From: Bacteroidota bacterium | GTDB taxonomy: Bacteria; Bacteroidota; Ignavibacteria; UBA10030; UBA8401 | Assembly (NCBI GenBank): GCA_049578505.1 | Contig: JBAUMC010000084.1 | Coordinates: 14,205 to 78,204 of the forward strand | DNA length: 64,000 bases | Direction of reading: 5' to 3' | Shown here: positions 826 through 56,106 of the stretch, piece after piece | How the letters are laid out: each line of letters starts with the position of its first letter | Numbering within the stretch: position 1 is the stretch's first letter | Notes under the pieces: generated by a model | Told to the model about the DNA's origin: nothing | What the model saw: the letters and a program-made list of their open reading frames with translations, nothing else | Databases searched by the model: none | Position numbers and translations under genes: made by a program

Positions 826-860
826 AATTAAGAATTAATAATTATGAATTAAAATTTGAA
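826..860. repeat. phased heptanucleotide tract (5 units: aattaag aattaat aattatg aattaaa atttgaa)
   Basis: Five consecutive in-phase 7-nt units. Positions 831-852 are perfectly complementary to 910-931. Confidence 0.8.
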
Positions 861-904
861 GGGATTGAACTGCAGATTGAACCTTGATAAGAGGCCGCTA
901 TGCC

Positions 905-939
905 AATTCTTAATTCATAATTATTAATTCTCAATTAAA
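905..939. repeat. phased heptanucleotide tract (aattctt aattcat aattatt aattctc aattaaa), inverted partner of 826-860
   Basis: Five in-phase 7-nt units. Forms a 22-bp perfect AT-rich stem with 831-852, with a loop of about 57 nt. Confidence 0.8.
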
Positions 940-945
940 AACTCG

Positions 946-1020
946 GGTGGCCAGTGGGACTTGAACCCACGACCTCTAGGGCCACAACCTAGCGTTCTAA
1001 CCAACTGAACTATGGCCACC
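946..1020 (-). tRNA. tRNA-His (anticodon GUG)
   Basis: The reverse complement GGTGGCCATAGTTCAGTTGGTTAGAACGCTAGGTTGTGGCCCTAGAGGTCGTGGGTTCAAGTCCCACTGGCCACC has the extra 5' G(-1) typical of tRNA-His. Anticodon loop TTGTGGC, T-loop GTTCAAGTC. Confidence 0.93.
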
Positions 1021-1160
1021 GTGAAATGAGAAACAGAGGTGGCAACTTTTGAATCCCGCCGGCAGCTTTGCTTTGGCGGGATTCTCAATTCCGCAGAGAA
1101 TTTAGCTTTACTTCGTTCGCTAAATTGAGCGAAATTGGAACTATGGCCACCATAGATTCA

Positions 1161-1190
1161 AAAAGCCTGTCGGATTACGGACAGGCTTTT
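1161..1190. terminator. bidirectional intrinsic terminator downstream of the PAP2 gene
   Basis: aaaagcctgtc (1161-1171) pairs perfectly with gacaggctttt (1180-1190), 8-nt loop. An A-run sits on one side and a T-run on the other. Confidence 0.7.
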
Positions 1191-1236
1191 TAGCGTCATA
1201 AAAGTACGAAAAATCCTTTTGGAAGGCAAGACGTAT

Positions 1237-4068: not shown

Positions 4069-5136
4069 TCAAGGTTGTTTCACAGCCGTCCATCCAGCCG
4101 ACCCGGTCAACGTTGGCCAGCCAGTTTTTTTTGCGTAAGCGCTGTAACTTCCCTCTCCTGTACCCATCGTTTTAAAATATCCGTTTAAATTCCCAGAGAT
4201 GGTAAACCCTTGATAACTTTGCGTCAAGGTTACGTTCATGCTCCCATCGCTGTTGATGAAACCTGTAAGAACGATGTTTCTTACGACTCCTATATCCTGA
4301 AATTGAATATCGATGTGGCCATTGATATCATAGCGTGTATAGATTACGCTTTTTGAGATATTGAAGTCGAAATTTTCCCCGAGCGTCGTCCCGATCCAGT
4401 TGCCGCAAATGCTGTCCGCTTCAGGGCTGAAGTACTGGTAATAATAGACATACTTATAGCGCGTCGTGGCAAGGCTGGGTTGATTTGGATTTTCGGCTGT
4501 GGCGACAATCGTTCTGTACCCCGTCATTAATCCTGTAATAATCTCCGAAAAATTTCCGTTCGCATCGTACGATACATTAGGATTGTTGTGTCCCGAACTC
4601 GCCTCAGTAATGCTCAGTTTTGCTTGGAGTTGGACGTTCCCCGTTGCGGCGATAGTGTCCCGAAATATCACAGAAGTAAGAGGCGGGTCAAGAGTCAATC
4701 CCGGGGCGGCGTTCACGGCTTTTACGTTTACCAGGAGAGGTATAGCGCTTACCGTGCCGACAGATGCGCCGATATTTGTGTATCCCGTATTGTGCGCCGT
4801 AACGATCCCATTCGAAACGGTCGCCGCTGGAGTGCTGGAAGAAGACCAGGATGCACTGTCCGACGGGATTGGCGTGGTAGTGGTGTCGGTCGTCGTCACG
4901 GTATCTGTAGCATTAGTGATGATTCCGCCATTGGATATTATTTGTGTGGAAGTGTTGATGCGCGCGCCGCGAAGGCTCAATGTTTGCGTTTCGTTCACCG
5001 CCATGGTAAGCGTATCGGGGTGAGGAAGAATTTCAAGCGATGCGAGATTGCTGGTTTGCTTTTGCTCTTGCGGCGGAGCGCATCCCAATAACCATCCCAG
5101 AACATATACACTGAAAAGAATTGAAAATGTTTTCAT
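4069..5136 (-). CDS. secreted lipoprotein with Ig-like (Big_2-type) repeat region, function unknown
   Basis: The internal Met at 5136 gives MKTFSILFSVYVLGWLLGC (signal peptide plus lipobox). Thr/Ser-rich linker and beta-rich remainder. The longest ORF extends to 5178. Confidence 0.6.
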   Translation of the reverse strand: MKTFSILFSVYVLGWLLGCAPPQEQKQTSNLASLEILPHPDTLTMAVNETQTLSLRGARINTSTQIISNGGIITNATDTVTTTDTTTTPIPSDSASWSSSSTPAATVSNGIVTAHNTGYTNIGASVGTVSAIPLLVNVKAVNAAPGLTLDPPLTSVIFRDTIAATGNVQLQAKLSITEASSGHNNPNVSYDANGNFSEIITGLMTGYRTIVATAENPNQPSLATTRYKYVYYYQYFSPEADSICGNWIGTTLGENFDFNISKSVIYTRYDINGHIDIQFQDIGVVRNIVLTGFINSDGSMNVTLTQSYQGFTISGNLNGYFKTMGTGEGSYSAYAKKTGWPTLTGSAGWTAVKQP

Positions 5137-11490: not shown

Positions 11491-11587
11491 CCGGTGTAAG
11501 GGCGAGATAAGGTTTGAGCCATTCATTTAAAACGATTTCAACTTTCCGAACAGCAACCGACCGTAGTTAACGTTATCATCGAAACTC

Positions 11588-12655
11588 ATGCTTCTTAAAA
11601 CCGACTGCCGCCACTTTCGCGGCGATGTCCCCTGTAAACCCCATAAGCAGCACGGCGTTCACTGTGAGAGCTGTACGTATTACGACCCCATCGATAAAAA
11701 CATCCTCATCATAAAACTCGGCGCTATCGGCGATGTCATTCGCACGACGCCGCTTCTTCACCGGTTGAAAAAAGATTTCCCGCACGCAAAAATCTGGTGG
11801 CTCACTCTTACTCCGGAAATGCTCCCGGACCTTGTGGACGTCCGGATGAAGTTTACGCTGGAAAATATTGTTTCCCTTCGATCGGTGAAATTCGATACCC
11901 TCTACAATCTTGATAAAGACCGAGAAGCGTGTGCTCTCGCCCTCCAAATAACAGCTGATACAAAGAAGGGTTTCATCCTGAAGAATGGGGTCTGCGCGCC
12001 GGCCGACAAAGATGCCGAAGCTAAGTTTTTTACCGGCGTTTTCGACGATACGAACAAAGCAAACACGAAAAGTTATCCCCAGGAAATTTTTGACGTGTGC
12101 GGGTTTAAGTTCACCGGAGAAAAATATATCCTGCCGTTCGAACCATGGATGGATAAACGGTGGAAGCTGCACGGGAAGAAAAAAATAATCGGCTTCAACA
12201 CCGGCTGCGGCGGACGCTGGACATCGCGCCTCTGGCCGGAGAAGTATTGGGTCGCTGCGGCACGATCGCTGAAGAAAGCCGGTTACGAGGTGCTCCTTCT
12301 TGGCGGGGAACAAGAGCATAAAAAGAACATGAAGATCGCAAAGGCAAGCGGGGCAAAATATTTCGGTCATTATCCGCTCAAGGAATTCATCAATCTTGTC
12401 AACCAGTGCGACCTCGTTGTTACGGCAGTGACGATGGCAATGCACATCACCATCGGGCTTGGCAAGAAGATAGTTCTCTTCAATAACATTTTTAACAAAC
12501 ATGAATTCGAGCTGTACGGACTCGGAAAGATTCTTGAACCGGAATTTGAGTGCACCTGTTATTACTCGCCGACATGTCCCAACAATTGCATGCAATATCT
12601 TTATCCTGAACGTGTTGTAAAAACAGTACGGCAACTTCTGGGAGCATCCGGGTGA
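11588..12655 (+). CDS. family 9 glycosyltransferase (LPS heptosyltransferase-like)
   Basis: ILIIKLGAIGDVIRTTPLL, a GT9 N-terminal signature, and a C-terminal half LLGGEQEHK ... VTAVTMAMHI. Cys-rich N-terminal 35 aa and C-terminal CTCYYSPTCPNNC. Confidence 0.8.
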   Translation: MLLKTDCRHFRGDVPCKPHKQHGVHCESCTYYDPIDKNILIIKLGAIGDVIRTTPLLHRLKKDFPHAKIWWLTLTPEMLPDLVDVRMKFTLENIVSLRSVKFDTLYNLDKDREACALALQITADTKKGFILKNGVCAPADKDAEAKFFTGVFDDTNKANTKSYPQEIFDVCGFKFTGEKYILPFEPWMDKRWKLHGKKKIIGFNTGCGGRWTSRLWPEKYWVAAARSLKKAGYEVLLLGGEQEHKKNMKIAKASGAKYFGHYPLKEFINLVNQCDLVVTAVTMAMHITIGLGKKIVLFNNIFNKHEFELYGLGKILEPEFECTCYYSPTCPNNCMQYLYPERVVKTVRQLLGASG

Positions 12656-12665
12656 TGCGTACGCG

Positions 12666-13796
12666 ATGAACGTTCTCATTCTTGGTACGGCGTACCCACT
12701 GCGCGGCGGTATTGCCCATTACAACGCCCTTCTTTATACCCATCTGAAAAAGAAACATGCCGTAGAAATTATTTCCTTCAAGAGACAATATCCGAAAATT
12801 TTTTTCCCGGGGAAGACGCAGGAGGAACTGGGAGAACCGGGCTTGCCGGTAACGAGTGAACAGTTGATCGATTCGGTAAATCCGTTGAATTGGATTCGGG
12901 TGGGTTTAGCTCTTCGCAAGCGAAACGCAGACACGGTGATTTTTAAGTACTGGCTTCCGTTTTTCGGCCCATGTATCGGAACAATCTGCGCTCTGCTGAA
13001 GTTCGGGCGGAAGACAAAAGTCGTTGCCATCTGCGATAATGTGATTCCGCACGAGCATCGTCCCGGCGATGCGTTGTTTACATGGTATGCCTTCAAATTT
13101 GTCGATGCGTTCATCGTTCAATCGGATACGGTCGAAAAAGATTTGCTCTCGACGGTAGAAAACCCGAAGTACAGAAAAGTTCCGCACCCGGTCTATGAAA
13201 TTTTTGGCGAACGCATTGAAAAAAAATGGGCTCGTGCAAAACTTAACATCCGCGACGAAAAGGTAATTCTTTTTTTCGGCTATATCCGACCGTACAAAGG
13301 GCTCCACGTTATGATCGATGCGATGAAAGAGCTAAAAAAATCTTTCGCTCTTAAATTGCTGGTCGTCGGAGAGTTCTACGACGACGAAGAGAAATACCGC
13401 TGGCACATCTCGGATGCACAAGTCCGCGATGTCATTGACGTCGTGTCGGATTATGTGCCGAACGAGAAAGTAGGAGAATATTTTTCTGCAGCGGACGCAG
13501 TTATTTTGCCGTATCTTTCGGCAACACAAAGCGGAATTACTCAAATTGCCTATAACTTCGACAAACCGGTTATCGCATCCGATGTCGGCGGGCTTGCGGA
13601 AGTCGTCGTTGATGGAGTTTCCGGATTGATCGTTCCGCCGAACAATCCGTCAAAGCTTGCAAGCGCGATAAAAAGGTTTTATTCCGAGAACCTTGAGGAA
13701 CAACTTTCTGCCGGCGCTGCGAGAGAAAAGAAGAAATATTCGTGGGAGAGAATGGTGGATGCGATAGAGCAATTAACAGTGATCGGTAAACAGTAA
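12666..13796 (+). CDS. family 4 glycosyltransferase (GT-B, glycosyl transferase group 1)
   Basis: The C-terminal GT1 signature has YFSAADAVILPYLSATQSGI and DVGGLAEVVVDGVSGLIV (EX7E-type region). Confidence 0.85.
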   Translation: MNVLILGTAYPLRGGIAHYNALLYTHLKKKHAVEIISFKRQYPKIFFPGKTQEELGEPGLPVTSEQLIDSVNPLNWIRVGLALRKRNADTVIFKYWLPFFGPCIGTICALLKFGRKTKVVAICDNVIPHEHRPGDALFTWYAFKFVDAFIVQSDTVEKDLLSTVENPKYRKVPHPVYEIFGERIEKKWARAKLNIRDEKVILFFGYIRPYKGLHVMIDAMKELKKSFALKLLVVGEFYDDEEKYRWHISDAQVRDVIDVVSDYVPNEKVGEYFSAADAVILPYLSATQSGITQIAYNFDKPVIASDVGGLAEVVVDGVSGLIVPPNNPSKLASAIKRFYSENLEEQLSAGAAREKKKYSWERMVDAIEQLTVIGKQ

Positions 13797-13882
13797 ACAG
13801 TTACCAACATAAATGTTGTTTACCGTTTACTTCAACGTGTTAGCTGATCATCGTTCACTGTTCACTGATGACTGAGCACTGA
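13785..13882. repeat. phased heptanucleotide tract, 14 units spanning the whole GT4-methyltransferase spacer
   Basis: ggtaaac agtaaac agttacc aacataa atgttgt ttaccgt ttacttc aacgtgt tagctga tcatcgt tcactgt tcactga tgactga gcactga. All units are in one 7-nt register and end 2 nt before the ATG at 13885. Confidence 0.75.
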
Positions 13883-13884
13883 AA

Positions 13885-14706
13885 ATGCATTACGACCCTA
13901 TAAAAAATGTAATCGGTAATGTTGCGCGGACCAGCCCGCTGGTGCGGAGGATCTTCTACATCGTTCTCGGGATTATGTTTTTACGCGAGTGGTACGTAAA
14001 GCGCGCTCTCCGGAAGGTGCTGGGGGGAAAAAGGGAACCGTTCATGATGTTCGACGCCGGTAGCGGTTTCGGACAATATTCGTACTACTGCGCCAAGCAA
14101 TTCCCGTCGGCAACAATCTACGCGGTCGACGTGAAAGAAGAACAAATCGCCGATTGCCGTTTCTTTTTTTCAAAAAGGAAGTTTAATAATGTATCGTTCG
14201 GAGTCGAAGACTTGACAATTCCAAAACATACCAATCGATTTGATTTTATTCTATCCGTCGATGTTATGGAACATATTCAGGACGACGTGCAGGTGTTCAA
14301 GAATTTCTTTCAGGCGTTAAAGCCCGGCGGCAAGGTTCTGATCAACACGCCGTCTAATCTCGGCGGCTCGGATGCGCACGACGAGAATGAAACAAGCTTT
14401 ATCGGAGAACACGCCCGCAACGGCTACTCCGTCGACGACATCACGCGAAAGCTGAAAAGCGCCGGTTTTCAGATGGAAAAGGTTACGTATACGTACGGAC
14501 CGATTGGAAGTGTCGCATGGCGGCTCGGCATCAAATACCCGATGCTGATGCTGAACAAAAGCAAGCTGAATTTCGTACTCCTTCCATTCTATTACATTCT
14601 CACCCTGTGGCTTACACTCCTTTTGATGTATGCCGACTACAAATTTCCCAACACACGGGGAACAGGATTACTTGTCGTTGCCGCCAAATCGGCATCGCAA
14701 CGTTAG
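13885..14706 (+). CDS. class I SAM-dependent methyltransferase with C-terminal membrane segments
   Basis: SAM motif I MFDAGSGFGQY, an acidic loop AVDV and a post-I region. The C-terminal LNFVLLPFYYILTLWLTLLLMY is hydrophobic. Confidence 0.8.
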   Translation: MHYDPIKNVIGNVARTSPLVRRIFYIVLGIMFLREWYVKRALRKVLGGKREPFMMFDAGSGFGQYSYYCAKQFPSATIYAVDVKEEQIADCRFFFSKRKFNNVSFGVEDLTIPKHTNRFDFILSVDVMEHIQDDVQVFKNFFQALKPGGKVLINTPSNLGGSDAHDENETSFIGEHARNGYSVDDITRKLKSAGFQMEKVTYTYGPIGSVAWRLGIKYPMLMLNKSKLNFVLLPFYYILTLWLTLLLMYADYKFPNTRGTGLLVVAAKSASQR

Positions 14707-14846
14707 CCCTATCCGTTTGGAGCGGTGGGCAGAGGTGTACTTCGAATTCTCAAAATTTCAGGAGACGGCGCACTCAATTATATAGTGAGGAGCAAGACGA
14801 TGCCACGCGTGTTGTCCATTAAGCTTCATCGATACCTCAACACAAA

Positions 14847-16106
14847 GTGATGCCCTTCGGCAAGACGTTCGACATCTTGCTAATATTCATCTTTCCCTTG
14901 TTTTTCTTCTCTCCTTTTTGTATTATTGAAAAACCACAGAAGACCAACCCTCTCGTTGTTTCGTTCATGAAGACCCTTCGTGCCGTTGAAGCAGAGCCCA
15001 CACATGCGTCGGCACCGTCATCTCAAGCAAAAGAATACAGCCGCATTAAATTAACATTGTCTCTCGTCGGGACGGCGATTTCGTTTATTCTCACGCTCGC
15101 GATTGTCGTCACCGGATTTTCCCTGCGTGTTGAGAATTTCGTCCACTCATATACGCAATCGCCGTACGCCGCGCTCCTTATATTCGGGGCGATACTCGGT
15201 TTGCTGAGCAGCATTTTTTCTTCCCCTCTCAGTTTCTACTCCGGCTTCATCCTCGAGCACCGGTATAATTTGTCAAACCAGACCTTCTTCCAATGGATGT
15301 GGGAACAATGTAAAGCATTTCTTGTCAGCATCCCGATAGCGGTGCCCCTTGTGCTGCTGTTTTATTTTTTCTTGAGAGAATATCAGTTATTATGGTGGCT
15401 GCCGGTCGCAACGGCCATGTTCGTCGTGTCGATGTTGCTTTCTAAAATTGTACCGGTCTTTATTATGCCCCTCTTCTACAAATTCACTCCTTTGGAGAAC
15501 GATGCGCTCAAAGAACGGATTCTCTCGATGTGTAAGAACACCCGCATGAACGTGACTGGAATTTTCACGTTCAACCTGAGCAAGACAACGAAGAAGGCAA
15601 ACGCAGGTTTTACCGGCATCGGAAAATCGAAACGGATTATTCTGGGCGATACGCTGATGCAGCATTTTTCGGATGACGAGGTGGAAACTGTTTTTGCGCA
15701 CGAGCTCGGCCATTACGTCCATGGACATATTTGGAAAAATATCCTGGTTGGGACCCTGAGTATCTATGCCGGACTTTTCATTACGTCAAAACTCTATTTT
15801 GTTTCGCTCGGATGGTTCGGCTTCTCTTCTGTCGATCAGCTCGCGGCCCTGCCGCTGCTGGCACTCTGGCTCGGAGTCTATTCGCTATTGACGTCCCCGT
15901 TGTCGAACGTTTTGTCGCGGAAGTATGAGTTCGAAGCGGACCGCTACGCTCTCGAGAGGACCGGAAATGCTTCGGCGTTTACCTCCACGATGAGGAAGCT
16001 TGCCGAAATGAACCTGGCCGATACTGCGCCGCATCCGGTTATAGAATTTCTTTTTTACAGCCACCCGTCGATAGAAAAAAGAATTCGCGCTGCGGAGAAT
16101 CCGTAA
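14847..16106 (+). CDS. M48-family zinc metalloprotease (Ste24/HtpX-like), polytopic membrane protein
   Basis: HEXXH in FAHELGHYVHGH and a downstream E in EFEADRYA, with multiple TM helices. The start is uncertain: GTG 14847, ATG 14850, or the Met at residue 41. Confidence 0.8.
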   Translation: MMPFGKTFDILLIFIFPLFFFSPFCIIEKPQKTNPLVVSFMKTLRAVEAEPTHASAPSSQAKEYSRIKLTLSLVGTAISFILTLAIVVTGFSLRVENFVHSYTQSPYAALLIFGAILGLLSSIFSSPLSFYSGFILEHRYNLSNQTFFQWMWEQCKAFLVSIPIAVPLVLLFYFFLREYQLLWWLPVATAMFVVSMLLSKIVPVFIMPLFYKFTPLENDALKERILSMCKNTRMNVTGIFTFNLSKTTKKANAGFTGIGKSKRIILGDTLMQHFSDDEVETVFAHELGHYVHGHIWKNILVGTLSIYAGLFITSKLYFVSLGWFGFSSVDQLAALPLLALWLGVYSLLTSPLSNVLSRKYEFEADRYALERTGNASAFTSTMRKLAEMNLADTAPHPVIEFLFYSHPSIEKRIRAAENP

Positions 16107-16822
16107 TGCGAAAGTTATTAACTGTCGGCCGGATCGTTGTCATTGTTGCGACGAATGCTTGCTTGTCGATTGCCGCGCTTCTCAGCCTTCTCGTCGAAAA
16201 AGACGGCCGCACATATTTTTGGGCCGGAAGCACATGGTCGAAACTTACGCTGAAGATTTGCGGGATCGACGTTCGCGTCAAAGGAATGGAACACATTGAG
16301 CTTAACGGATCGTACATTTTCGTGACGAACCATGCCAGCATGTTTGATATTCCGGCGATTATGTCGGTGCTGCCTCGTGTGCGCATCATGTTCAAGAAGG
16401 AATTGTCGTACGTCCCCATCTGGGGCTGGGCGTTGAAATGGGGTCATCACATTATGGTCGACCGGGCGAAAGGAAGTGAAGCAATGAAAAGCCTTGACCG
16501 CGCGGCGAAAGCGATCAAAGCTGGCGGTTCCGTAATTCTTTTTGCGGAAGGAACGCGGACGCGTGATGGGAAATTGCTCCCGTTTAAGCGGGGTGCCTTT
16601 ACGCTTGCGGCAAAATCGGGAGTTCCGATTGTTCCAATAGCGATCAACGGAAGCTTCAAAATCTTACCGAAGAGTTCACTCGATATCCGGCCAAGTCCGA
16701 TTGAATTGCTGATGGGAGAGCAGATCGATACGTCGCACATCACAACACGGGATGAGGAAATTGAGTTGATGAAGCGCGTGAGGGAAATTATTGAACGGAA
16801 CTATCGGGAAGATATTTCTTGA
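16106..16822 (+). CDS. plsC: 1-acyl-sn-glycerol-3-phosphate acyltransferase
   Basis: Acyltransferase motifs NHASMFD (HX4D) and FAEGTRT. The ATG overlaps the M48 TAA stop (TAATG). Confidence 0.85.
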   Translation: MRKLLTVGRIVVIVATNACLSIAALLSLLVEKDGRTYFWAGSTWSKLTLKICGIDVRVKGMEHIELNGSYIFVTNHASMFDIPAIMSVLPRVRIMFKKELSYVPIWGWALKWGHHIMVDRAKGSEAMKSLDRAAKAIKAGGSVILFAEGTRTRDGKLLPFKRGAFTLAAKSGVPIVPIAINGSFKILPKSSLDIRPSPIELLMGEQIDTSHITTRDEEIELMKRVREIIERNYREDIS

Positions 16823-16832
16823 GCGATCGAGT

Positions 16833-42451: not shown

Positions 42452-42457
42452 GGAAGC

Positions 42458-42534
42458 AATTAAAAATTAATAATTAAAAGTTAAAAAACTGTCAGCAATA
42501 ACAAGGCTAAGAGCTAAGAACCACGGACTGCGAA
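42458..42534. repeat. phased heptanucleotide tract, 11 units filling the paaD-paaC spacer
   Basis: aattaaa aattaat aattaaa agttaaa aaactgt cagcaat aacaagg ctaagag ctaagaa ccacgga ctgcgaa, all in one register. Confidence 0.7.
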
Positions 42535-44610: not shown

Positions 44611-44806
44611 ATTCTGTATAGGCAAATTTGAGGTGGTATGTACGAAACTACTTAATTGCCCTCTCAAAAACAAGATACCGACGTTACATTTTACTTCGGA
44701 CATCTCCTGAAACAAGATGGTGCCGTTGCCTTTCTACCAACCTTTAGGTATTATTCTGCCGCAGGGCGCGTTTGAAACGTCGCCCTCACACTTTACTCAA
44801 ATTTAC

Positions 44807-44855
44807 AACCTAGAACCTAGAACCTAGGACTTAGAACTCAGGACTTAGGACATAC
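44807..44855. repeat. phased heptanucleotide tract (aacctag x3, gacttag, aactcag, gacttag, gacatac)
   Basis: Seven in-phase units ending 12 nt before the paaH ATG. Confidence 0.85.
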
Positions 44856-46434: not shown

Positions 46435-46442
46435 AATATTCG

Positions 46443-46473
46443 GCCATCCGATTGCTTTAGGCAATCGGATGGC
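46443..46473. repeat. REP-like hairpin 1 (upstream of RAYT)
   Basis: gccatccgattgc - tttag - gcaatcggatggc, a perfect 13-bp stem. Confidence 0.75.
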
Positions 46474-46496
46474 TGACCTATAATCGGGGGGGAACA

Positions 46497-47072
46497 ATGA
46501 AATATCGTGACAGCTGTTATTACCATGTCTACAATCGGGGATCACGAAAAGGGAACATCTTTTTTTCAAAAGAAAATTACGATTATTTCCTCCGACTTGT
46601 TAAAGCCAACTCTAATAAATATTCGACTTCAATTATTGCATGTTGTCTGATGCCGAATCATTATCACCTGTTGCTTTTTCAACGAGAAGGCGGAAGTATT
46701 TCAAAGACGCTGCAAACAACGCTCAATTCTTATGTGCAAGCCGTTAACAAAAGGTATAAATTCAGCGGTTCTCTATTTCAAGGTAAAGTAAAATCCATCC
46801 TAGTTGAAAGAGACAAATACCTAGTTCATCTTGTGCGGTATATTCATTTAAATCCCGTTAAGGCAAAGCTTGCCCTCTCTCCCATTCAATGGGAGTATTC
46901 AGACTATTCGCGTTGGGTGGAAAACGGCAAGCCATCCGATAGCTTAAAGCTATCGGATGGCTTTATTGGTTTGCGAAATTCGTATTTCGGCGGGGGAAAT
47001 AATTACCGAGAGTTCGTTGAAGGGTATGATTACAAGGCCGTTGGAACGTTTACGAAATATTTTCTCGAATGA
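46497..47072 (+). CDS. REP-associated tyrosine transposase (RAYT; IS200/IS605-like HUH Y1 transposase)
   Basis: YHVYNRGSRKGNIF, the HUH motif in LMPNHYHLLL, and a catalytic Tyr region VRYIHLNPVKAKL. Flanked by REP-like hairpins. Confidence 0.8.
   Translation: MKYRDSCYYHVYNRGSRKGNIFFSKENYDYFLRLVKANSNKYSTSIIACCLMPNHYHLLLFQREGGSISKTLQTTLNSYVQAVNKRYKFSGSLFQGKVKSILVERDKYLVHLVRYIHLNPVKAKLALSPIQWEYSDYSRWVENGKPSDSLKLSDGFIGLRNSYFGGGNNYREFVEGYDYKAVGTFTKYFLE
46931..46961. repeat. REP-like hairpin 2 (inside the RAYT ORF)
   Basis: gccatccgatagc - ttaaa - gctatcggatggc, a perfect 13-bp stem. It differs from hairpin 1 by one compensated base pair. Confidence 0.7.
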
Positions 47073-47078
47073 AGAGAA

Positions 47079-47107
47079 CGATCTGATTGCTTAAAGCAAT
47101 CAGATCG
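47079..47107. repeat. REP-like hairpin 3 (between RAYT and the amidase gene)
   Basis: cgatctgattgc - ttaaa - gcaatcagatcg, a perfect 12-bp stem related to hairpins 1 and 2. It may also terminate the convergent genes. Confidence 0.7.
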
Positions 47108-50500: not shown

Positions 50501-51136
50501 CTATTTTAGAATTTCCCCCGTTTCGTTACTCCAAAAAAGTAGATCAAGATCGTCGATCGGTATGCCGATTTCCGCCGCAAATTTTTGAAAGCGCTGTTCG
50601 AGAGCGAGATATTTTTTCTTCGTCAAGGTTTTCGGAAGAGATCGGATGGCGCCGTGCTTCTTTAAATTCCTAAGAATGTGCCGATCGAGAATCGCCAGGC
50701 CTTCGTTCAGTCCGACGTTGCGCAAGAAATGGGTCGCCTCTTTATACCCAATCCCTTTCACGTTCTCGGCCAGCCATTCCCTTTTCTCGAAAGCAGGTTC
50801 ACCGTTAGAGATTTTCCGGAGAATTTCGCCGTATTGCCGCTTCATGGCGATGAGCAATTTTGCTTTTGTCTTATGGAAGCGGATATAATATTCTTTTTGG
50901 TGGAGCAGCGGCTCCGGATTGAACTCGGCGTTCTGAAAATTGTGGGCCATCAATGTTTTCTGGGCCTTCGCCGAGTTGATCGCGCTCGACTGAGGCGTCA
51001 TGAAACAATACACCAGTTCATAGAAATATTCCTCGCGTGTCACCGCACGGAAATCGCTTAAGCGCCGTCGAATTGCAGGCTGCTTTCTTTCGTAATCATG
51101 CAGCAACAGGTCGATGTTTTTGTAGCGAGCGTTCAC
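50501..51136 (-). CDS. ogg: 8-oxoguanine DNA glycosylase/AP lyase, archaeal type (Ogg2-like, HhH-GPD)
   Basis: VKGIGYKEATHFLRNVGLNEGLAILDRHILRNLKKHG. The GTG at 51136 overlaps the mutY stop as GTGA. The longest ORF (to 51226) would overlap mutY by 94 nt. Confidence 0.75.
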   Translation of the reverse strand: MNARYKNIDLLLHDYERKQPAIRRRLSDFRAVTREEYFYELVYCFMTPQSSAINSAKAQKTLMAHNFQNAEFNPEPLLHQKEYYIRFHKTKAKLLIAMKRQYGEILRKISNGEPAFEKREWLAENVKGIGYKEATHFLRNVGLNEGLAILDRHILRNLKKHGAIRSLPKTLTKKKYLALEQRFQKFAAEIGIPIDDLDLLFWSNETGEILK

Positions 51137-52032
51137 CGGGCGATGGATACCTTCCTTCTTTCTCCGGTTCCGCGAAGGGCGATCAACGCTTCTCTTTCCA
51201 TCATTTTCAACACATTCATAATCCATTTCATATCTCGCAGGTGAAAGCCGTCGACAACCCGCTCCCCGAGCTGCCGCGCAGTCAATGGGGCATCGTGGAG
51301 AGCTTTTAAAATCCTTCCGCGGTAAATTCGGCGGGGAACTCCTTTGAACGACGGCTCAGCTTTTTTCGGCGATGAGATATTTTTTCTCAGACCAGTTGAG
51401 AAAGCCGATGCACATAATGTATTGACCGGGCATGAACTGCAGCGTGGAGTTTTTGCCGTGCACACCATCGCACCGAGGTCCATGAGGGCCTGGTTCCATT
51501 GAAGAGAGTTTCGCGGAGGGAGAATTTTTTCGGCAGTGGCCCAAATGACTTTTTCCGATTTCATGTCGTTTGTTGAGCGGGCTTTCCAGAATATTCGGCT
51601 GAAGATTCGCCGGATATTAATATCAACAACAGGGGCGGCCGCGTTGAAAGCAAAACATGTAATAGCGTGCGCAGTATACTTTCCGATGCCGGGCAGGTCC
51701 TGTAGTTCTTCAATTGTGCGAGGAAGCCTGCCTCCTGAATTTTCTGCAAGCTGTTTGGCAAGCTGGTGCAGTCGAAGGGCACGGCTGTTGTAACCGAGTC
51801 CCGACCACTGACGCAAAACATCGCTTTTTGGCGCCCCCGCCAACGCTGAAAGTGTCGGAAATTTCTTCAACCATGCTGAATAAAAGACCGCGACACGACT
51901 TACCTGCGTTTGCTGCGCCATGACCTCCGAAAGGAGGATCCGGTAAGGATTTTTCGTTTTCCGCCAGGGGAGATCACGACCGTTATTTTTATACCAATGG
52001 AGAATTTTTGAATGAAGCCGGGAAGAGTTCAA
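51133..52032 (-). CDS. mutY: A/G-specific adenine glycosylase-like (MutY/Nth superfamily, 4Fe-4S) with a non-canonical C-terminal domain
   Basis: WYKNNGRDLPWRKTKNPYRILLSEVMAQQTQV, the HhH LPGIGKYTA, and the FeS cluster CTAKTPRCSSCPVNTLC. TTG start. Confidence 0.8.
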   Translation of the reverse strand: MNSSRLHSKILHWYKNNGRDLPWRKTKNPYRILLSEVMAQQTQVSRVAVFYSAWLKKFPTLSALAGAPKSDVLRQWSGLGYNSRALRLHQLAKQLAENSGGRLPRTIEELQDLPGIGKYTAHAITCFAFNAAAPVVDINIRRIFSRIFWKARSTNDMKSEKVIWATAEKILPPRNSLQWNQALMDLGAMVCTAKTPRCSSCPVNTLCASAFSTGLRKNISSPKKAEPSFKGVPRRIYRGRILKALHDAPLTARQLGERVVDGFHLRDMKWIMNVLKMMEREALIALRGTGERRKVSIAR

Positions 52033-52038
52033 AAGAGC

Positions 52039-52073
52039 AATTAAGAATTATGAATTAAGAATTAGGAATTAAG
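52039..52073. repeat. phased heptanucleotide tract (aattaag aattatg aattaag aattagg aattaag)
   Basis: Five in-phase units immediately upstream of the mutY start. Confidence 0.85.
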
Positions 52074-52125
52074 GGTGCAGATAAAAAAGGAATGCTCTCT
52101 AAATGTCGGATTTGTGATGATCTGG

Positions 52126-52527
52126 TCAAGTTTTTAACTTTTCACTTTGAACTTTTAATTTTTCCACCACGTCCTTGTTGCCTTCCAGCATATCGATACC
52201 CGCTAACTCGGCGCGATTAACCCATCTGATTTGTTCAAAGATATTATTCCGGATTGTTCCGGAGAATGAAGAAACGAAATGGTAAAAAACCTCGAACGAG
52301 CCCGAATCGGGATAGAGCCATTCCTGGCGGAAAAATTCTTGCCCGACGATTGCATCGATGGAAAGTTCTTCGCGGAGTTCTCTCCTGAGGCATTGATCGA
52401 CCGATTCGCCGTTCTCAAATTTGCCTCCTGGAAATTCCCACTTCAACGGATACCGGGAATTTTTCTTTCGCTGGCAAACAAGTACTTGCGGACCGAGGGT
52501 GATGATTCCTACAGCGACTTTTATCAT
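52126..52527 (-). CDS. mutT: NUDIX hydrolase, MutT-like (8-oxo-dGTP diphosphatase)
   Basis: The Met at 52527 gives MIKVAVGIIT. Nudix box GKWEFPGGKFENGESVDQCLRRELREELSI. The longest ORF extends to 52584. Confidence 0.82.
   Translation of the reverse strand: MIKVAVGIITLGPQVLVCQRKKNSRYPLKWEFPGGKFENGESVDQCLRRELREELSIDAIVGQEFFRQEWLYPDSGSFEVFYHFVSSFSGTIRNNIFEQIRWVNRAELAGIDMLEGNKDVVEKLKVQSEKLKT
52128..52162. repeat. phased heptanucleotide tract (aagtttt taacttt tcacttt gaacttt taatttt) over the mutT 3' end
   Basis: Five in-phase units. They encode the last 12 aa or so of the mutT ORF. Confidence 0.75.
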
Positions 52528-52705
52528 GGGAGAATATAAAAAGATGGTGGTTGAAAGACAACGTTGTATATAGAAGTCGCCCATGCCACCTAAGAAAGAG
52601 GCCTATCTGGATAGTTTGCCAAACTTGATTGACAAAATGTTCGACATCTTGCGATGCCATACATCTAGCCAGTGTCTTAGTTTAAGGGCTCTCATCCCAA
52701 TTTGA

Positions 52706-52972: not shown

Positions 52973-52990
52973 GCCATGTTTTTTTTCTGA

Positions 52991-53031
52991 AGCCGTTACT
53001 GATGCATTCCAATTCAGCAGCGGCTTTTTTT
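52991..53031 (+). terminator. riboswitch expression platform: intrinsic terminator
   Basis: agccgttactga (52991-53002) pairs with tcagcagcggct (53014-53025), with 1 mismatch and 1 G-U, followed by TTTTTTTATTT. Confidence 0.7.
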
Positions 53032-53088
53032 ATTTCCGAAAGGTCGGAAGGATTTTTTGTGATAAAGGAAAAAATGGAAAGGTCTATA

Positions 53089-55329
53089 ATGCGAAAAATG
53101 GTAATTGTGATCGTTTCTAGTTTCGTAGTCCATCTAAATCTCTATTCCCAAGATGAAAAAGATAAGGACACTGTAAAATACACGCTAGCCCCCGTTTTTG
53201 TTACAGCGACTGAAGCGAAAGAGCGGGAAACGCCTGTGACATTTACAAATCTCAACAAAGGTCTTATCGAAGAACGTTACTCGATGCAGGATGTTCCTGT
53301 CTTGCTTGCCCAGCTCCCCTCTATGATTTCTTTTTCGGACGGAGGAAACGGCATCGGCTACAATTATGTAACGTTGCGCGGGTTCGATCAGTCCCGTTTA
53401 TCCATTATGGTGAACGGCATTCCTCAAAATGACCCCGAAGACCAGGGCGTGTATTGGCTTGACTTTTCAGATATTCTTGCAAGCGCGTCGAACGTTCAAG
53501 TGCAGCGAGGTGCTGGAAGCGCGTTCTATGGTCCTCCGGCGATCGGGGGCTCAATCAACGTTATCACCAACCCGTTTGAGCCTAAGCCGTACGTGAGGTT
53601 TGAAAGCATGTTCGGCTTTCAGCAATACAGCGACAGCAGTGCATCGTTGCCGATGACGATGAAAAAGCTTTCTGCATCGTTCAATTCTGGTCTGGTTGAT
53701 AATAAGTATATGTTCTACGGCAAGCTTGGACAAATAAATTCGGACGGGTACCGAATTCATTCGGGAGCGGCGCTCGACTCGTATTTCTTTGGGGCGCTGC
53801 TGCTTGGGGAAAACACATCGACCCGGATTCATTTTTTCGGCGGACCGTTGCAGGATCAGTTGGTATACAACGGCGTGCCGAAATCATACAACGGTGATTA
53901 CCAACTTCGAAGGATGAACATTAACGATGAGGGTCTGATCCGTCAACCGGAAGAAAACGAACAATTCACACAACCCCATTATGAGATTCTCAACGAATGG
54001 AAGATTTCTGAAACACAAAAACTGAGCAACACGTTGTTTTTTTATGAGGGGCATGGATGGTTCGATTTTGATGAATACGGGGACACATCGACGTTTCGCA
54101 TCGACCAGGTACATGGCTTGCATCCTACGCAGGACATATCGACTGCACTTATCCGGGCCGGCATCGATCTCGCGCAATGGGGCTGGCTGCCACACTATGA
54201 ATGGACGCACGAAAACGGCGAGCTGACCGTCGGCGGTGAACTCCGCTACCACAAGGGAACACATTGGGGTCAGGTGTTGAGCGCCGACAGCCTCCCTGCA
54301 AATTATGACATCAGTTACCGGTTCTATCAGTACAACGGCGAGAAGACGATGGCGTCATTGTACGCCAGTGAAGTGTATCGCCTTCAAGAAAACATTTCCC
54401 TGATGGCGAACGTGCAGTTTGCGTACGACCAGTACAGGATTGATGATGAAAAGTTTTTAGATAATTCGTTCAGCTACCCGTATTATTTTCTCAATCCGCG
54501 ATTCGGGATAAATTATAATATTACCGATGCATGGAACACGTATATCTCCGTGGCGTACACATCGCACGAGCCGCCGTTGAGCAATCTTTACGACGCTGAA
54601 AATTCCGCCTACGACCCTACTATTGTTCCGCAGTTTGAAACGAAAATTGTCAACAACGATACCGTGTACGATTACACGAAGCCTCTTGTAAAGCCGGAGC
54701 AGCTTCTCGACTTCGAGCTGGGCGCAGGGTACAGATCGAATGATCTGACCGGAACCGTGAATGTCTACTGGATGGAGTTTACAAATGAATTGGTCCCGAA
54801 CGGAAAGCTCAACCGTTTCGGTATCCCGATCGTCGGCAACGCAGACCGGACGCGCCACATCGGTATTGAGCTGGACGGTTCGGCCCGGCTGCCGTTTTTA
54901 TTTTCTCTGAGCGGAAATGTATCGGTGTCATCCAATAAAATTATCAAAGAAACTGTCCTCAACGTAGATTCAACCGGAGCAATCTTCCCCGCGAATTTGG
55001 ACGGTAATCCCATAGGAGGCTTTCCAAGCATTCTGGGAAATATCTTTTTAAATTATCAAACTGACAAATTGACCGCATCGTTTTCAGCAAAATATGTCGG
55101 TTCGTTCTACACAGACGATTTCAAGCTTGAAGCAGATAAGAACGATGCGTACACTGTATTTAATATTGAAGCATTGTATAAACTTCCTTCCATCGCAAGC
55201 GCCGGCCTGACGCTTCGGGGAGAAGTCCGCAACGTATTCAACACCCTCTACATGCAAACAGGGAACGGCAACTTATTCTTTCCAGCGGCAGAGAGAAATT
55301 TTGTCGCCGGCATTTCTGTGCAATTATAG
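53089..55329 (+). CDS. TonB-dependent receptor (candidate thiamine/thiamine-precursor outer-membrane transporter)
   Basis: The Met at 53089 gives the signal peptide MRKMVIVIVSSFVVHLNLYSQ. Plug-domain motifs (VFVTATEAKE, VTLRGFDQSRLSIMVNGIPQND, VQVQRGAGSAFYG) and a large barrel. The track start at 53002 lies inside the terminator hairpin. Confidence 0.88.
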   Translation: MRKMVIVIVSSFVVHLNLYSQDEKDKDTVKYTLAPVFVTATEAKERETPVTFTNLNKGLIEERYSMQDVPVLLAQLPSMISFSDGGNGIGYNYVTLRGFDQSRLSIMVNGIPQNDPEDQGVYWLDFSDILASASNVQVQRGAGSAFYGPPAIGGSINVITNPFEPKPYVRFESMFGFQQYSDSSASLPMTMKKLSASFNSGLVDNKYMFYGKLGQINSDGYRIHSGAALDSYFFGALLLGENTSTRIHFFGGPLQDQLVYNGVPKSYNGDYQLRRMNINDEGLIRQPEENEQFTQPHYEILNEWKISETQKLSNTLFFYEGHGWFDFDEYGDTSTFRIDQVHGLHPTQDISTALIRAGIDLAQWGWLPHYEWTHENGELTVGGELRYHKGTHWGQVLSADSLPANYDISYRFYQYNGEKTMASLYASEVYRLQENISLMANVQFAYDQYRIDDEKFLDNSFSYPYYFLNPRFGINYNITDAWNTYISVAYTSHEPPLSNLYDAENSAYDPTIVPQFETKIVNNDTVYDYTKPLVKPEQLLDFELGAGYRSNDLTGTVNVYWMEFTNELVPNGKLNRFGIPIVGNADRTRHIGIELDGSARLPFLFSLSGNVSVSSNKIIKETVLNVDSTGAIFPANLDGNPIGGFPSILGNIFLNYQTDKLTASFSAKYVGSFYTDDFKLEADKNDAYTVFNIEALYKLPSIASAGLTLRGEVRNVFNTLYMQTGNGNLFFPAAERNFVAGISVQL

Positions 55330-55338
55330 TCTGAATTC

Positions 55339-55992
55339 ATGAAAACAATATCGGCAGGGAAAAAAAAGCGCGAGGCCTTAGTCATTTGCAACGGCGAAGT
55401 CCCTTCGAAAAAAGCGATGCTACAGTTGCTGCGAGGAAAACCGTTCATCGTTTGCGCGGATGGGGGAGCGAATAAAGCCCGAACGCTTGGCATCCTGCCG
55501 GATCTCATTATCGGCGATTTGGATTCGATTTCACTCGTAACGAGGCGATTTTTCCCCAACGTTGAAACACTCCGTGTTAAAAGCCAGTACAGCACGGACC
55601 TCGAAAAAGCGCTCGATTATTTGGTGAAACATCGGTATCAAACCGCAAGTGTTGTAGGCGCACTGGGGGGCAGACCCGATCACTCGTTTGCAAACTTCAG
55701 CATTTTTAAAAAATACCATAATCGAATCGGCCTCCTTTTCTCTGACTCTCTGTGCAATATTCAAATTATCGATAAGAAAATAGTTTTCGAATCACGAATC
55801 GGCACGGTAATTTCGTTAATGCCGCTCGGCCGATGCGTGGGAATTACGACAGCAGGTCTCGAATTCCCACTAGTCAATGAATCGCTCGAACTTGGCATCC
55901 GTGAAGGAACGAGCAACAAGGTAATTTCTTCTCCTGTAAAAATATCCGTCAAAAAGGGAAGTCTGTTGTTGTTTGTGGTAAAGTCGAAATGA
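55339..55992 (+). CDS. thiN: thiamine diphosphokinase (TPK)
   Basis: VICNGEVPS...IVCADGGANKARTLGILPDLIIGDLDSI and GALGGRPDH, plus a C-terminal thiamine-binding beta domain. Confidence 0.85.
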   Translation: MKTISAGKKKREALVICNGEVPSKKAMLQLLRGKPFIVCADGGANKARTLGILPDLIIGDLDSISLVTRRFFPNVETLRVKSQYSTDLEKALDYLVKHRYQTASVVGALGGRPDHSFANFSIFKKYHNRIGLLFSDSLCNIQIIDKKIVFESRIGTVISLMPLGRCVGITTAGLEFPLVNESLELGIREGTSNKVISSPVKISVKKGSLLLFVVKSK

Positions 55993-56071
55993 TTAATATC
56001 AATTTGCGATATTCAAATTCCGATTGACGATTTCATAAAATTTTAATTTGCCGCTAAGAATTGTGATACTT

Positions 56072-56106
56072 GTTGATTGCTCATTGTTGATTGTTCATTG
56101 CACATG
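56072..56106. repeat. phased heptanucleotide tract (gttgatt gctcatt gttgatt gttcatt gcacatg)
   Basis: Five in-phase units that run into the ATG at 56104. The track start (TTG at 56077) lies within the tract. Confidence 0.75.

Follow-up and report, generated by a model that had tools for sequence, protein, structure and literature searches.

Period-7 intergenic repeat tracts in an Ignavibacteria contig, about half of them arranged as inverted pairs able to fold a whole spacer

Period-7 tracts occur in nine spacers of the window (the whole 64,000-nucleotide stretch analyzed here). They are heptanucleotide simple-sequence repeats (SSRs), of the kind called STRR (short tandemly repeated repetitive sequences) or long SSRs elsewhere. 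As a class, such intergenic heptamer repeats of bacteria have been described before and are still unexplained; the novelty here is that about half of them lie in conserved inverted pairs able to fold an entire intergenic spacer into a long stem-loop. To the reading that these are slippage-born repeats maintained as cis elements between cistrons, some as stop-to-start stem-loops and others as unstructured T-rich leaders, we give a probability of roughly one half.

Tandem Repeats Finder (TRF) places period-7 arrays at or inside each of the 12 intervals listed in an earlier, sequence-only reading of this DNA, and the lag-7 identity of these intervals (0.54–0.86) is matched by 0–7 of 1000 shuffles per interval. 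With strict tracts defined as at least 28 nt with at least 78% self-identity at lag 7, a lag scan of the whole window finds seven, compared with none in 30 dinucleotide shuffles, and none at lags 6 and 8–15. When the scan is limited to the 35 spacers, seven carry a strict tract, none does so in 100 shuffles of these same spacers, and lags 4–6 and 8–12 give no tract. Within the window, the claims that the tracts are real and that the period is always 7 are thus borne out, with no enrichment of any other period from 4 to 15, as is the claim that they are confined to spacers or to the first or last codons of ORFs, none being found inside coding sequence (∼92% of the window). All 12 intervals are indeed period-7, but 13785–13882 and 42458–42534 are not the runs of 14 and 11 consecutive units that had been described; the lag-7 profile shows two or three periodic segments in each, with non-periodic sequence between them. 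A tract absent from that list, five CRAWTKN units at 56000–56035, was also found. Although repeats are a known cause of assembly error, the chance that the tracts are assembly artifacts is negligible: a Logan assembly of run SRR28023419 (L081), which is from the same sample and so tests the assembler and not the reads, is 100% identical to window positions 16347–18338 (1992 nt, four tracts included), and over 20 metagenome contigs and MAGs of independent origin carry orthologous tracts. The tracts and their surroundings are as follows.

826–858, − strand: tRNA-spacer hairpin arm, AATTAAG-type on + and TTNTTAA-type on −, TRF period 7; directly 5′ of tRNA-Glu (744–817)
904–936, − strand: partner arm, directly 3′ of tRNA-His (945–1019); the loop is 859–903 (45 nt)
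13779–13806, + strand: 5′ arm in the GT4-methyltransferase spacer, AACAGTR units over the GT4 stop TAA (13794–13796)
13846–13883, + strand: GTTCACT/GATGACT/GAGCACT units, inverse of AACAGTR and TAACTGA-like; ends 2 nt upstream of the methyltransferase ATG 13885
16833–16874, + strand: plsC-gatC solo tract, ATTCTGA-type (TRF, lag-7 profile); ends ∼18 nt before gatC ATG 16892, upstream of GGAG
17177–17216, + strand: gatC-kdsB hairpin 5′ arm (inverted repeat I3), units N-C-R-A-W-T-K; follows directly on the gatC stop (17177–17179)
17254–17287, + strand: gatC-kdsB hairpin 3′ arm, ATYG every 7 nt; holds kdsB TTG 17277
18000–18040, + strand: kdsB-pyrG 5′ arm (I4), AAAATTC units forming the last kdsB codons (stop TGA 18030–18032)
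18067–18098, + strand: kdsB-pyrG 3′ arm, T-rich TTTTTCA/TTTTTAA/TTTTAAC, TRF period 7; ends ∼14 nt upstream of pyrG TTG 18112
42455–42488, − strand: paaD solo tract, TTNTTAA-type; ends 4 nt before paaD GTG 42451
42506–42534, − strand: weaker second periodic segment (lag-7 profile) with GCTAAGA twice; just after the paaC stop at 42536
44797–44854, + strand: AACCTAG/GACTTAG tract in the divergent spacer between paaA (start 44610, public gene call) and the 3-hydroxyacyl-CoA dehydrogenase gene; ends ∼12 nt upstream of ATG 44867
52035–52076, − strand: tract upstream of the mutY-like gene, AATTAAG-type (TTCTTAA on −); ends 3 nt before the start at 52032
52128–52164, − strand: NUDIX C-terminal tract, CTTTTAA-type, over the end codons and stop of gene 52126–52584
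56000–56035, + strand: tract downstream of thiamine pyrophosphokinase (TPK), CRAWTKN five times after the TPK stop
56070–56105, + strand: tract upstream of the sodium:solute symporter (SSF) gene, ATTGNNN five times (TTGTTGA/TTGCTCA), running into SSF ATG 56104

The sequence-only reading had listed the tracts singly. The inverted pairs form imperfect stems of 24–33 bp with a mismatch at about every seventh position and loops of 30–55 nt, and their arms are 81–91% complementary in the window; because the stem covers the entire spacer, the upstream stop codon or tRNA 3′ end meets, at its base, the start codon or tRNA 5′ end on the downstream side. The tRNA-spacer pair (I1, 826–858 with 904–936) is complementary at 91% of 33 nt, and the predicted RNA fold of 818–944 on the − strand reaches −35.4 kcal/mol (z = −6.3). 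The orthologous GT4-methyltransferase spacer of L001 gives a nearly unbroken ∼26-bp stem (−38.6 kcal/mol, z = −4.95), and the region upstream of gatC in L004 folds with z = −6.1. Among 81 sequences, Ignavibacteria and Omnitrophota loci included, 9 of 20 pairs of neighboring tracts (up to 700 nt apart) are inverted and none is direct, against a background of 5%. The solo tracts are T-rich, unstructured (z = +0.5 to +1.4), and adjoin starts that mostly lack a Shine-Dalgarno sequence: the plsC-gatC region is no more structured than its shuffles (z = +0.5), and the paaD region is likewise unstructured (z = +0.85). The NUDIX tract is a weak inverse of the mutY-like one (5/7 unit match), with no stable fold predicted for the two, and the TPK-SSF arrays are inverse in a 4-nt core only (CAAT/ATTG), so that no stable stem forms (z = +1.4).

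In the mechanism that we favor, strand slippage in A+T-rich spacers would make and resize the arrays, and those lying in intercistronic spacers of co-directional gene clusters would be retained as cis elements in this FCB lineage. A stem in the polycistronic transcript would hide the downstream start, and a ribosome terminating upstream would open it, giving translational coupling; alternatively, RNase III or another RNase specific for double strands may cleave the stem. Solo arrays would act as unstructured leaders. It is possible that the tracts serve in processing or as insulators, or that some factor reads the 7-nt register. The RNase III alternative has a parallel in Haemophilus influenzae hmw1A and hmw2A, where (ATCTTTC)n is the left arm of a 122-nt 5′-UTR hairpin cleaved by RNase III (PMC12721329). 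As in the window, a heptamer SSR there makes up one side of a long imperfect hairpin that precedes a start codon; the hmw SSR is transcribed, and its hairpin is a demonstrated post-transcriptional cis element (PMC12721329). Opposite the repeat, the hmw hairpin has a G-rich sequence that is not repetitive; the array itself is perfect and phase-variable and belongs to a gene for a virulence adhesin (PMC12721329), whereas in the window each of the two arms is a degenerate heptamer array that stays stable from species to species and lies between housekeeping genes.

The stem of the gatC-kdsB spacer has the gatC stop at its 5′ base and the kdsB TTG start within its 3′ base, and the fold has z = −2.3 on the + strand and −3.9 on the −. 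The spacer has the same 97-nt length in nine distinct species (an ungapped 127-column alignment); arm identity is 0.71 and 0.79, whereas the loop reaches 0.50 and the 4-fold sites of kdsB 0.54, and C, A, and T are invariant every 7 columns in all nine orthologues. Pairing holds in 79% of cells in register and in 18–47% when the arms are slid. Six pairs carry double changes, four of them clear-cut (32/103, UA in five and GC in four; 35/100, GC in four, AU in three, and GU in two; 46/89, GC in four and UA in four; and 28/107), and the covariation score is reached by 0 of 500 shuffles. Judged by this alignment, the element is shown to be under purifying selection, a result specific to gatC-kdsB.

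Several observations nevertheless count against the preferred reading as cis elements. The covarying gatC-kdsB pairs split two subclades and so may represent only about four independent events, and template-switch correction of quasi-palindromes could also yield covarying pairs. With 12 G·U cells on the sense strand and 11 A·C cells (G·U on the antisense), the stem has no strand asymmetry that would favor sense RNA over antisense RNA or DNA. The kdsB-pyrG spacer, where most clade members have a T-rich heptamer array at the 3′-arm position, folds better on the antisense than on the sense strand in five of five species. The TPK-SSF arrays are complementary in their 4-nt core only and do not fold, and the location bias is weak: after strand correction, tracts are found in 8 of 24 co-directional spacers and 1 of 11 convergent or divergent ones, and the difference falls short of significance (Fisher p = 0.12, computed from the counts before that correction). 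Finally, the periodic invariant bases of the gatC-kdsB stem exceed what pairing alone needs.

These surplus invariant bases suggest, on sequence grounds, a reader of the motif, and the corresponding alternative, which we regard as doubtful, is a protein able to read, in a 7-nt register, either double-stranded DNA or single-stranded nucleic acid. Such a protein would polymerize on contiguous heptads, direct or inverted, as omega or ToxR does, or, following MacGregor's proposal, it could be an RNA-binding reader of the type of S1, Csp, or CsrA. Binding sites would account for the inverted CAAT/ATTG core that is all the TPK-SSF arrays have in common, for units slightly more similar to each other than composition-matched permutations (z = 3.8), and for a small unit vocabulary that recurs at several loci and across genera: TTNTTAA-type units in five spacers (17 matches versus 0.19 expected), CRAWTKN in two (17177–17216 and 56000–56035), AATTARG in both L013 and L004, and TTCTTAA upstream of pyrG in both L089 and L093. 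The earlier claim that the unit differs from locus to locus therefore stands insofar as there are several families, but not for TTNTTAA and CRAWTKN, the few that are shared. At least six unit families within the 64 kb mean, however, that a single sequence-specific reader cannot account for all the tracts; the variable R and K positions of the gatC-kdsB units covary between arms, which independent sites do not require; most tracts are intra-operon and not at promoter regions; and no candidate protein is encoded beside any tract. The omega protein of pSM19035, a ribbon-helix-helix (RHH) protein, polymerizes on WATCACW heptads. ToxR reads TTTTGAT heptads at the ctxAB promoter (10.1101/2021.05.14.444153). 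Both kinds of array resemble the window's in their contiguous 7-bp units, direct or inverted, with a conserved core per unit, but they serve as operators at promoters, each with a single unit sequence and a cognate protein that is known, whereas the window has many families, intra-operon positions, and no candidate protein encoded beside its tracts.

Slippage favors 7-nt units in many prokaryotes, and a slippage origin fits arrays that differ by whole units between orthologues: (TAACTTT)4, 16, and 10 stand at one position in L040, L051, and L073, respectively, and (AATTAGG)13 is found in L013 only. It is possible to go further and see all the tracts as neutral debris of a 7-nt slippage bias in replication or repair, tolerated without function in weakly selected spacers, with inverted pairs made by fold-back template switching. 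Consistent with this, heptamers rank first in frequency among the long SSRs of many prokaryotes, and a polymerase-contact explanation has been proposed (Mrazek 2007, as summarized in PMC4679880); the lineage distribution is patchy; more distant relatives that keep the gatC-kdsB synteny have short spacers and no tract; and some arrays, namely these of L013, L040, L051, and L073, are long and near-perfect and hence recent. We consider debris unlikely as a full account. The gatC-kdsB arms are more conserved than the loop and 4-fold sites, 97 nt persist without an indel in nine species with periodic invariant positions, a given spacer retains its unit type between genomes whose 4-fold sites are 0.35–0.55 identical (L001 and L002, for example, have an ATTCTGA-type unit at the same plsC-gatC position), and nine inverted pairs against no direct ones call for an extra mechanism. 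That a lineage-wide process makes or keeps the tracts, as had been proposed, is upheld: the same spacers bear them in related genomes, and their density is 1.1–2.9 per 10 kb in the clade compared with ∼0.35 in other lineages.

Intrinsic transcription terminators or insulators between genes had also been suggested, and some tracts are indeed hairpins downstream of stop codons. Convergent spacers are devoid of tracts, however, the stems are A+T-rich with loops of 30–55 nt, a terminator scan of 13000–19000 picks up no tract, and the start codon of the following gene falls within one stem, so that a terminator role is very unlikely. Still less probable is that the hairpins are MITEs or REP/BIME elements mobilized by the window's RAYT-like transposase. 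They are dispersed, hairpin-forming, and located in spacers, and a Y1 transposase gene with flanking palindromes is present at 46497–47072, but every locus has a unique loop, the arms are tandem units of differing families with no common terminal sequence, and orthologous positions are fixed, with constant length across species. The RAYT-adjacent palindrome, GCCATCCGAT...ATCGGATGGC, is G+C-rich, non-periodic, and found beside the RAYT-like gene only.

Like the window's tracts, cyanobacterial STRR are tandem heptamers within operon spacers; their hosts belong to another phylum, and most window units are A+T-rich (74% A+T), unlike canonical STRR units. The AACAGTR units at 13779–13806 resemble the STRR unit CAACAGT. 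The hupS-hupL hairpin of Nostoc punctiforme is composed of STRR units. It has been reported in the hupS-hupL intergenic region (PMC2661322). The earlier view that such tracts are undescribed outside heterocystous cyanobacteria is wrong: arrays of TAACTGA and other heptamers are on record for 15 Cyanobacteria, for Beggiatoaceae, and for five members of the Bacteroidetes (PMC4679880), and intergenic tandem heptamers are given as the commonest short repeat across prokaryotes (Mrazek et al. 2007 in PMC4679880; SPADE, PMC6344855). Prokaryotic long SSRs agree with the window in being period-7, short, intergenic, present at many loci per genome, and patchy in phylogeny (PMC4679880; SPADE survey, Mori et al. 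2018, PMC6344855). The surveys count direct arrays, and their accessible text does not report the inverted pairing, cross-species conservation, and fixed spacer length seen in the window (PMC4679880, PMC6344855).

The TAACTGA repeats are comparable in position: direct heptamers a few nucleotides upstream of starts without a Shine-Dalgarno sequence, accompanied by other heptamers, with Bacteroidetes among the hosts (MacGregor 2015, PMC4679880), and the window's TCACTGA/TGACTGA/GCACTGA units, 2 nt before ATG 13885, are near-matches. That system has one dominant unit and only one reported indirect repeat (PMC4679880), whereas the window has several families and about half of its tracts in inverted pairs. 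In Geobacter metallireducens, heptanucleotide repeats (MTYCTGA, GGGACCG) stand four or five together in multicopy elements found at dozens of sites; the ATTCTGA units of 16833–16874 fit the consensus MTYCTGA, and the elements, some intragenic, are putative global regulator sites or RNA elements (PMC2700814).

As had been claimed, the tracts distort start and stop calls of neighboring genes. The gatC start is ATG 16892 and not 16874, that of SSF is ATG 56104 and not 56077, and that of kdsB is TTG 17277 and not 17208; the public kdsB gene call is the same over-extended 274-aa ORF.

For each of the twelve intervals listed in the sequence-only reading, Tandem Repeats Finder reported an array of period 7 lying at or within it, and a lag-identity scan of the window returned 7 strict lag-7 tracts, compared with none in 30 dinucleotide-preserving shuffles and none in the window itself at lags 6 and 8-15. 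When each spacer was shuffled by itself, 7 of the 35 window spacers carried a tract versus 0 in 100 shuffles, and the spacers gave 0 tracts at lags other than 7, which upholds the proposed period. Lag-7 identity of the claimed intervals is 0.54-0.86, a value reached by 0-7 of 1000 shuffles; at 54-86% identity the units are degenerate. With head-to-tail 7-nt units in at least 3-4 copies (Tandem Repeats Finder and lag-7 scan), and with an excess at many intergenic loci that exceeds chance and is specific to period 7, the tracts are heptamer SSRs. Two intervals put forward as long runs of consecutive units (13785-13882 and 42458-42534) are periodic but are composites of two or three segments, and the list, although borne out at all twelve places, had overlooked an array at 56000-56035. 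A second public assembly, from run SRR28023419, is 100% identical over window positions 16347-18338, and the tracts are thus not an artefact of one assembler. As had been claimed, all tracts in the window lie in spacers or on terminal codons of genes. After strand correction, 8 of 24 co-directional spacers carry a tract versus 1 of 11 convergent or divergent ones (8/23 versus 1/12, p = 0.12, before correction), which is a trend only.

The window is ordinary chromosome with a G+C content of 48%, and the closest genomes are uncultured Bacteroidota- and Ignavibacteria-labelled MAGs, with a KdsB identity of 84% or less, which makes it reasonable to place the source in the FCB group.

Genes, paired arms and solo (unpaired) tracts of the window
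826-858 and 904-936: arms in the spacer between two tRNA genes (tRNA-His and tRNA-Glu), 33 nt, 91% complementarity
13779-13806 and 13846-13883: arms in the GT4-MTase spacer, a ~26-bp almost uninterrupted stem in the orthologue of L001, a related locus
17176-17207 and 17256-17287: arms in the gatC-kdsB spacer, 81% complementarity
18012-18038 and 18069-18095: arms in the kdsB-pyrG spacer, 85% complementarity
16833-16874, 42455-42488, 44797-44854, 52035-52076 and 56070-56105: solo tracts
LPS and lipid gene cluster, on one strand: GT2, GT9, GT4, methyltransferase, M48 peptidase, plsC, gatC, kdsB, pyrG
paaABCD genes
Repair cluster: ogg, a mutY-like gene, a NUDIX gene
Other genes: thiamine pyrophosphokinase (TPK), sodium:solute symporter (SSF), glnE and others

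A practical consequence of the heptamer tracts is that they mislead gene callers, as had been suspected from the start and stop calls of neighbouring genes. The true gatC start is ATG 16892, the true kdsB start is TTG 17277, the point at which orthologues begin MKIIGIIP, and the true SSF start is ATG 56104; the public kdsB call is an over-extended 274-aa ORF with 23 spurious N-terminal residues. The GT4, kdsB and NUDIX products also end in C-terminal tails encoded by repeat units.

The sequence-only reading had overlooked that many tracts are paired in inverted orientation: conserved inverted repeats that span a spacer take up about half of the tracts as their arms. Because the arms adjoin the flanking genes in every inverted-pair spacer, the spacer is closed by the stem over its full length; in the gatC-kdsB stem the gatC stop lies at the 5' base and the kdsB start within the 3' base. 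Heptamer arms are found in long, stable predicted hairpins upstream of start codons (fold z of -3.9 to -6.3 versus shuffled controls, together with covariation), with individual values of -6.3 for the tRNA spacer, -3.9 for gatC-kdsB, -4.95 for the GT4-MTase spacer of L001 and -6.1 upstream of gatC in L004, another related locus. Solo tracts, by contrast, are predicted to be no more folded than shuffles (z = +0.4 to +1.4); they stop 0-20 nt short of start codons, and the majority are T-rich on the sense strand. Among 81 sequences, in a survey that takes in Ignavibacteria (L040), Bacteroidota (L051) and Omnitrophota (L062, L064), neighbouring tract pairs have inverse units in 9 of 20 cases and direct units in 0 of 20, against a background of 5%.

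Long, near-perfect inverted arrays of 10-22 units are also seen in Ignavibacteria and Bacteroidota MAGs (L040 1297-1674, L051 3004-3622 and L073 5117-6605). Those of L040 and L051 enclose a small ORF (78-123 aa) and those of L073 ~1.3 kb, so that these inverted repeats act over a long range, around entire genes, and are not short loops. In the tRNA-spacer hairpin, the loop (859-903) holds a direct repeat of GATTGAAC in two copies (GGGATTGAACTGCAGATTGAACC) and a small GGCC-containing stem.

The gatC-kdsB element provides a concrete test object. Synteny from GT4 to pyrG is preserved in the related loci L001-L004, whose orthologous spacers carry the same unit types despite a 4-fold-site identity of only 0.35-0.55; a metagenome scan contributed ~20 close relatives. 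Nine distinct gatC-kdsB spacer sequences align without any gap over 127 columns; the two arms have a mean pairwise identity of 0.71 and 0.79, versus 0.54 for kdsB 4-fold sites and 0.50 for the loop. In arm 1 a C, an A and a T are invariant at intervals of seven columns (unit N-C-R-A-W-T-K), ATYG recurs at the same interval in arm 2, and position seven of a unit is usually a mismatch. Of all cells, 79% pair in the register i+j = 135, versus 18-47% if the arms are slid, and double changes occur in six pairs, four of them clear-cut (32/103, 35/100, 46/89 and 28/107). The arms are length-invariant within the close clade, and the loop drifts in sequence at fixed length. Arm conservation, covariation and periodic core together show purifying selection on the arms for both pairing and the core, so that one spacer-spanning inverted repeat is under selection; pure neutrality of the tracts is disfavoured by the same conservation data.

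In some relatives a module of loop, 3' arm and kdsB start is tandemly duplicated two or three times (L003 1262-1535; L099; L098, which is of the L004 type), with a unit of ~70-90 nt and each copy ending in a TTGAAAATCATC pseudo-start, so that a single 5' arm could pair with any of several 3' arms.

The tracts can be rejected as mobile elements, terminators or artefacts. The A+T-rich stems, the 30-55-nt loops and a terminator scan of 13000-19000 that picked up no tract rule out Rho-independent terminators (short G+C-rich stem, small loop, U-tract), a role that had been proposed for the tracts. A REP/BIME system with a RAYT does not fit: there, many dispersed copies of one conserved palindromic unit match the palindromes flanking the RAYT gene, whereas the palindrome adjoining the RAYT-like gene here is unrelated to the tracts and occurs only beside that gene, and the arms are tandem units of several families. 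Nor do MITEs, dispersed copies with internal sequence and terminal inverted repeats in common; here every locus has a loop of its own, and the elements hold fixed positions at orthologous sites. Phase-variable contingency SSRs are perfect, hypermutable arrays in promoters or ORFs of surface or virulence genes and vary between strains, whereas the present units, in sequences known from one sample, are degenerate, flanked by housekeeping genes and conserved across species. Rfam 15 likewise points to no known RNA family for the tracts, as it gave only the two tRNAs above gathering thresholds in the window and 0 matches at E <= 1 in 16800-18150.

As to mechanism, slippage would make and resize heptamer arrays, and those retained would act in cis on the polycistronic transcript. 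The stems would provide translational coupling by linking a stop with the start that follows, or alternatively would be cut by a double-strand-specific RNase, and the role of unstructured T-rich arrays would be that of leaders. An experimental precedent for a heptamer hairpin as a cis element comes from the hmw 5'-UTR of Haemophilus, in which ten ATCTTTC units form one arm of an RNase III-cleaved hairpin (PMC12721329), and by analogy the window stems may be transcribed and cleaved by RNase III. Several observations nevertheless weaken this model. The gatC-kdsB stem has 12 G.U versus 11 A.C pairs, with no wobble asymmetry and no strand preference; the antisense strand of the kdsB-pyrG spacer folds better in all five species, and a slight preference for the sense strand is seen in the tRNA spacer, such that wobble asymmetry gives no consistent answer across spacers on RNA versus DNA. 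In addition, the periodic invariant core of gatC-kdsB exceeds pairing needs, and the TPK-SSF arrays (56000-56035 and 56070-56105) share an inverted CAAT/ATTG core alone. Given these weak points, the rival that stays live is a protein of omega/RHH-like or ToxR-like type that reads heptads, or else a structure at the DNA level. Heptad operator arrays of that type have a cognate DNA-binding protein and a promoter location; no candidate protein is encoded near the tracts in the window.

The units were thought to differ from locus to locus; there are indeed several families, but TTNTTAA-type units are common to five spacers (17 matches versus 0.19 expected) and CRAWTKN units to two. A single common motif is rejected, the units being just a little more alike than permuted ones (mean best match 4.9 versus 4.6 of 7). 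AACAGTR resembles CAACAGT, and the remaining units differ from canonical cyanobacterial STRR sequences, which separates the tracts from the strict cyanobacterial family and not from the general class. A stop trinucleotide is found on 19 of 22 unit-strands of the 11 window tract units versus 13.5 +/- 1.8 in composition-matched permuted units (P = 0.002, an optimistic value, since inverted pairs are not independent and are counted twice), and at a period of 7 three units give a stop in each frame on both strands. We regard this excess as a clue only; a tri-frame stop insulator would not account for a period of 7 rather than 4, 5 or 8.

The period-7 excess is lineage-specific. Tract density per 10 kb is 1.1 in the window, 2.9 in the close clade, where loci were picked around tract-rich spacers, and ~0.35 elsewhere. 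The genome-wide process that had been suggested to create or maintain the tracts is supported as a lineage-wide one. The excess is not universal: 61 more distant metagenome loci have no period-7 enrichment (9 tracts at period 7, versus 9 at period 5, 7 at period 6 and 7 at period 9). Of the window proteins looked up in sequencing runs, those found occur only in SRR28023419 and one is not on record. Copy number changes by whole units at one orthologous site, with (TAACTTT)4 in L040, 16 units in L051 and 10 in L073. More distant relatives retain gatC-kdsB synteny with short spacers that lack heptamers, the sole exception being L013, (AATTAGG)13. There, ~13 AATTAGG-type units (4704-4823), of the same family as those at window 52039-52073, fill the spacer, and the neighbours of L013 have a short spacer without repeats.

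That tandem heptamers are over-represented in the spacers of bacteria has been known from the time of the cyanobacterial STRR work, and thousands of genomes have since confirmed it, with no accepted account of function or mechanism. Arrays of TAACTGA and of further heptamers, often lying immediately 5' of start codons, are reported for Beggiatoaceae, 15 Cyanobacteria and five Bacteroidetes (PMC4679880), Geobacter metallireducens has heptamer elements of 4-5 units, including MTYCTGA (PMC2700814), and Chloroflexus aurantiacus has (GATAGRA)n repeats. Such arrays are thus already described, in the FCB group as well, whereas the sequence-only reading knew of no description in an FCB-type genome; the window tracts are a real feature of a known, unexplained class and show no new kind of system. 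What they add is an example in an FCB lineage that is uncultured, with tracts between housekeeping genes that are conserved over a divergence nearly saturating synonymous sites. In the published accounts of heptamer repeats that we consulted, we found neither a predominance of inverted neighbouring arrays over direct ones, nor the spacer-spanning geometry, nor cross-species constraint.

We give a chance of roughly one in five to the reading that paired inverted arrays are a selected, widespread class of 'heptad-stem' spacer elements of fixed length, in which each 7-nt unit has a conserved 4-5-nt core, one position in seven is mismatched and the stem base joins a stop to the following start, and which a dedicated factor or process with a 7-nt register reads or maintains. 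If true, this class would be the first functional handle on seven as the preferred period of bacterial intergenic repeats; in either case the gatC-kdsB stem offers experiments a good way into a long-standing puzzle.

Some further features of the window deserve mention. A 191-aa IS200-like Y1 transposase (RAYT-like, PF01797) at 46497-47072 is flanked by G+C-rich REP-like palindromes (46440-47106), at 46443-46473 and, inside the 3' part of the ORF, at 46931-46961, with a related one at 47079-47106; the window has no further copy except one 9-mer at 50641. Immediately 3' of pyrG (19888-21303) lies the gene of a beta-CASP/RMMBL metallo-beta-lactamase-fold RNase (RNase J/CPSF-like), close to the hairpin-rich spacers, and nothing connects the gene with them. 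Opposite-strand ORFs of ~360 aa overlap in the window (11576-12679, minus; 11588-12655, plus) and in L001 (4473-5573 and 4482-5549); the plus-strand ORF is the GT9 heptosyltransferase, and its partner, for which there is no Pfam match, is probably a shadow ORF. Finally, an oxidised-guanine repair trio lies in a row at 50501-52584 on the minus strand, comprising a NUDIX (MutT-like) protein, a HhH-GPD/EndoIII-type (MutY-like) protein and an 8-oxoguanine glycosylase (Ogg), with the spacer between the NUDIX and MutY-like genes filled by heptamer tracts.
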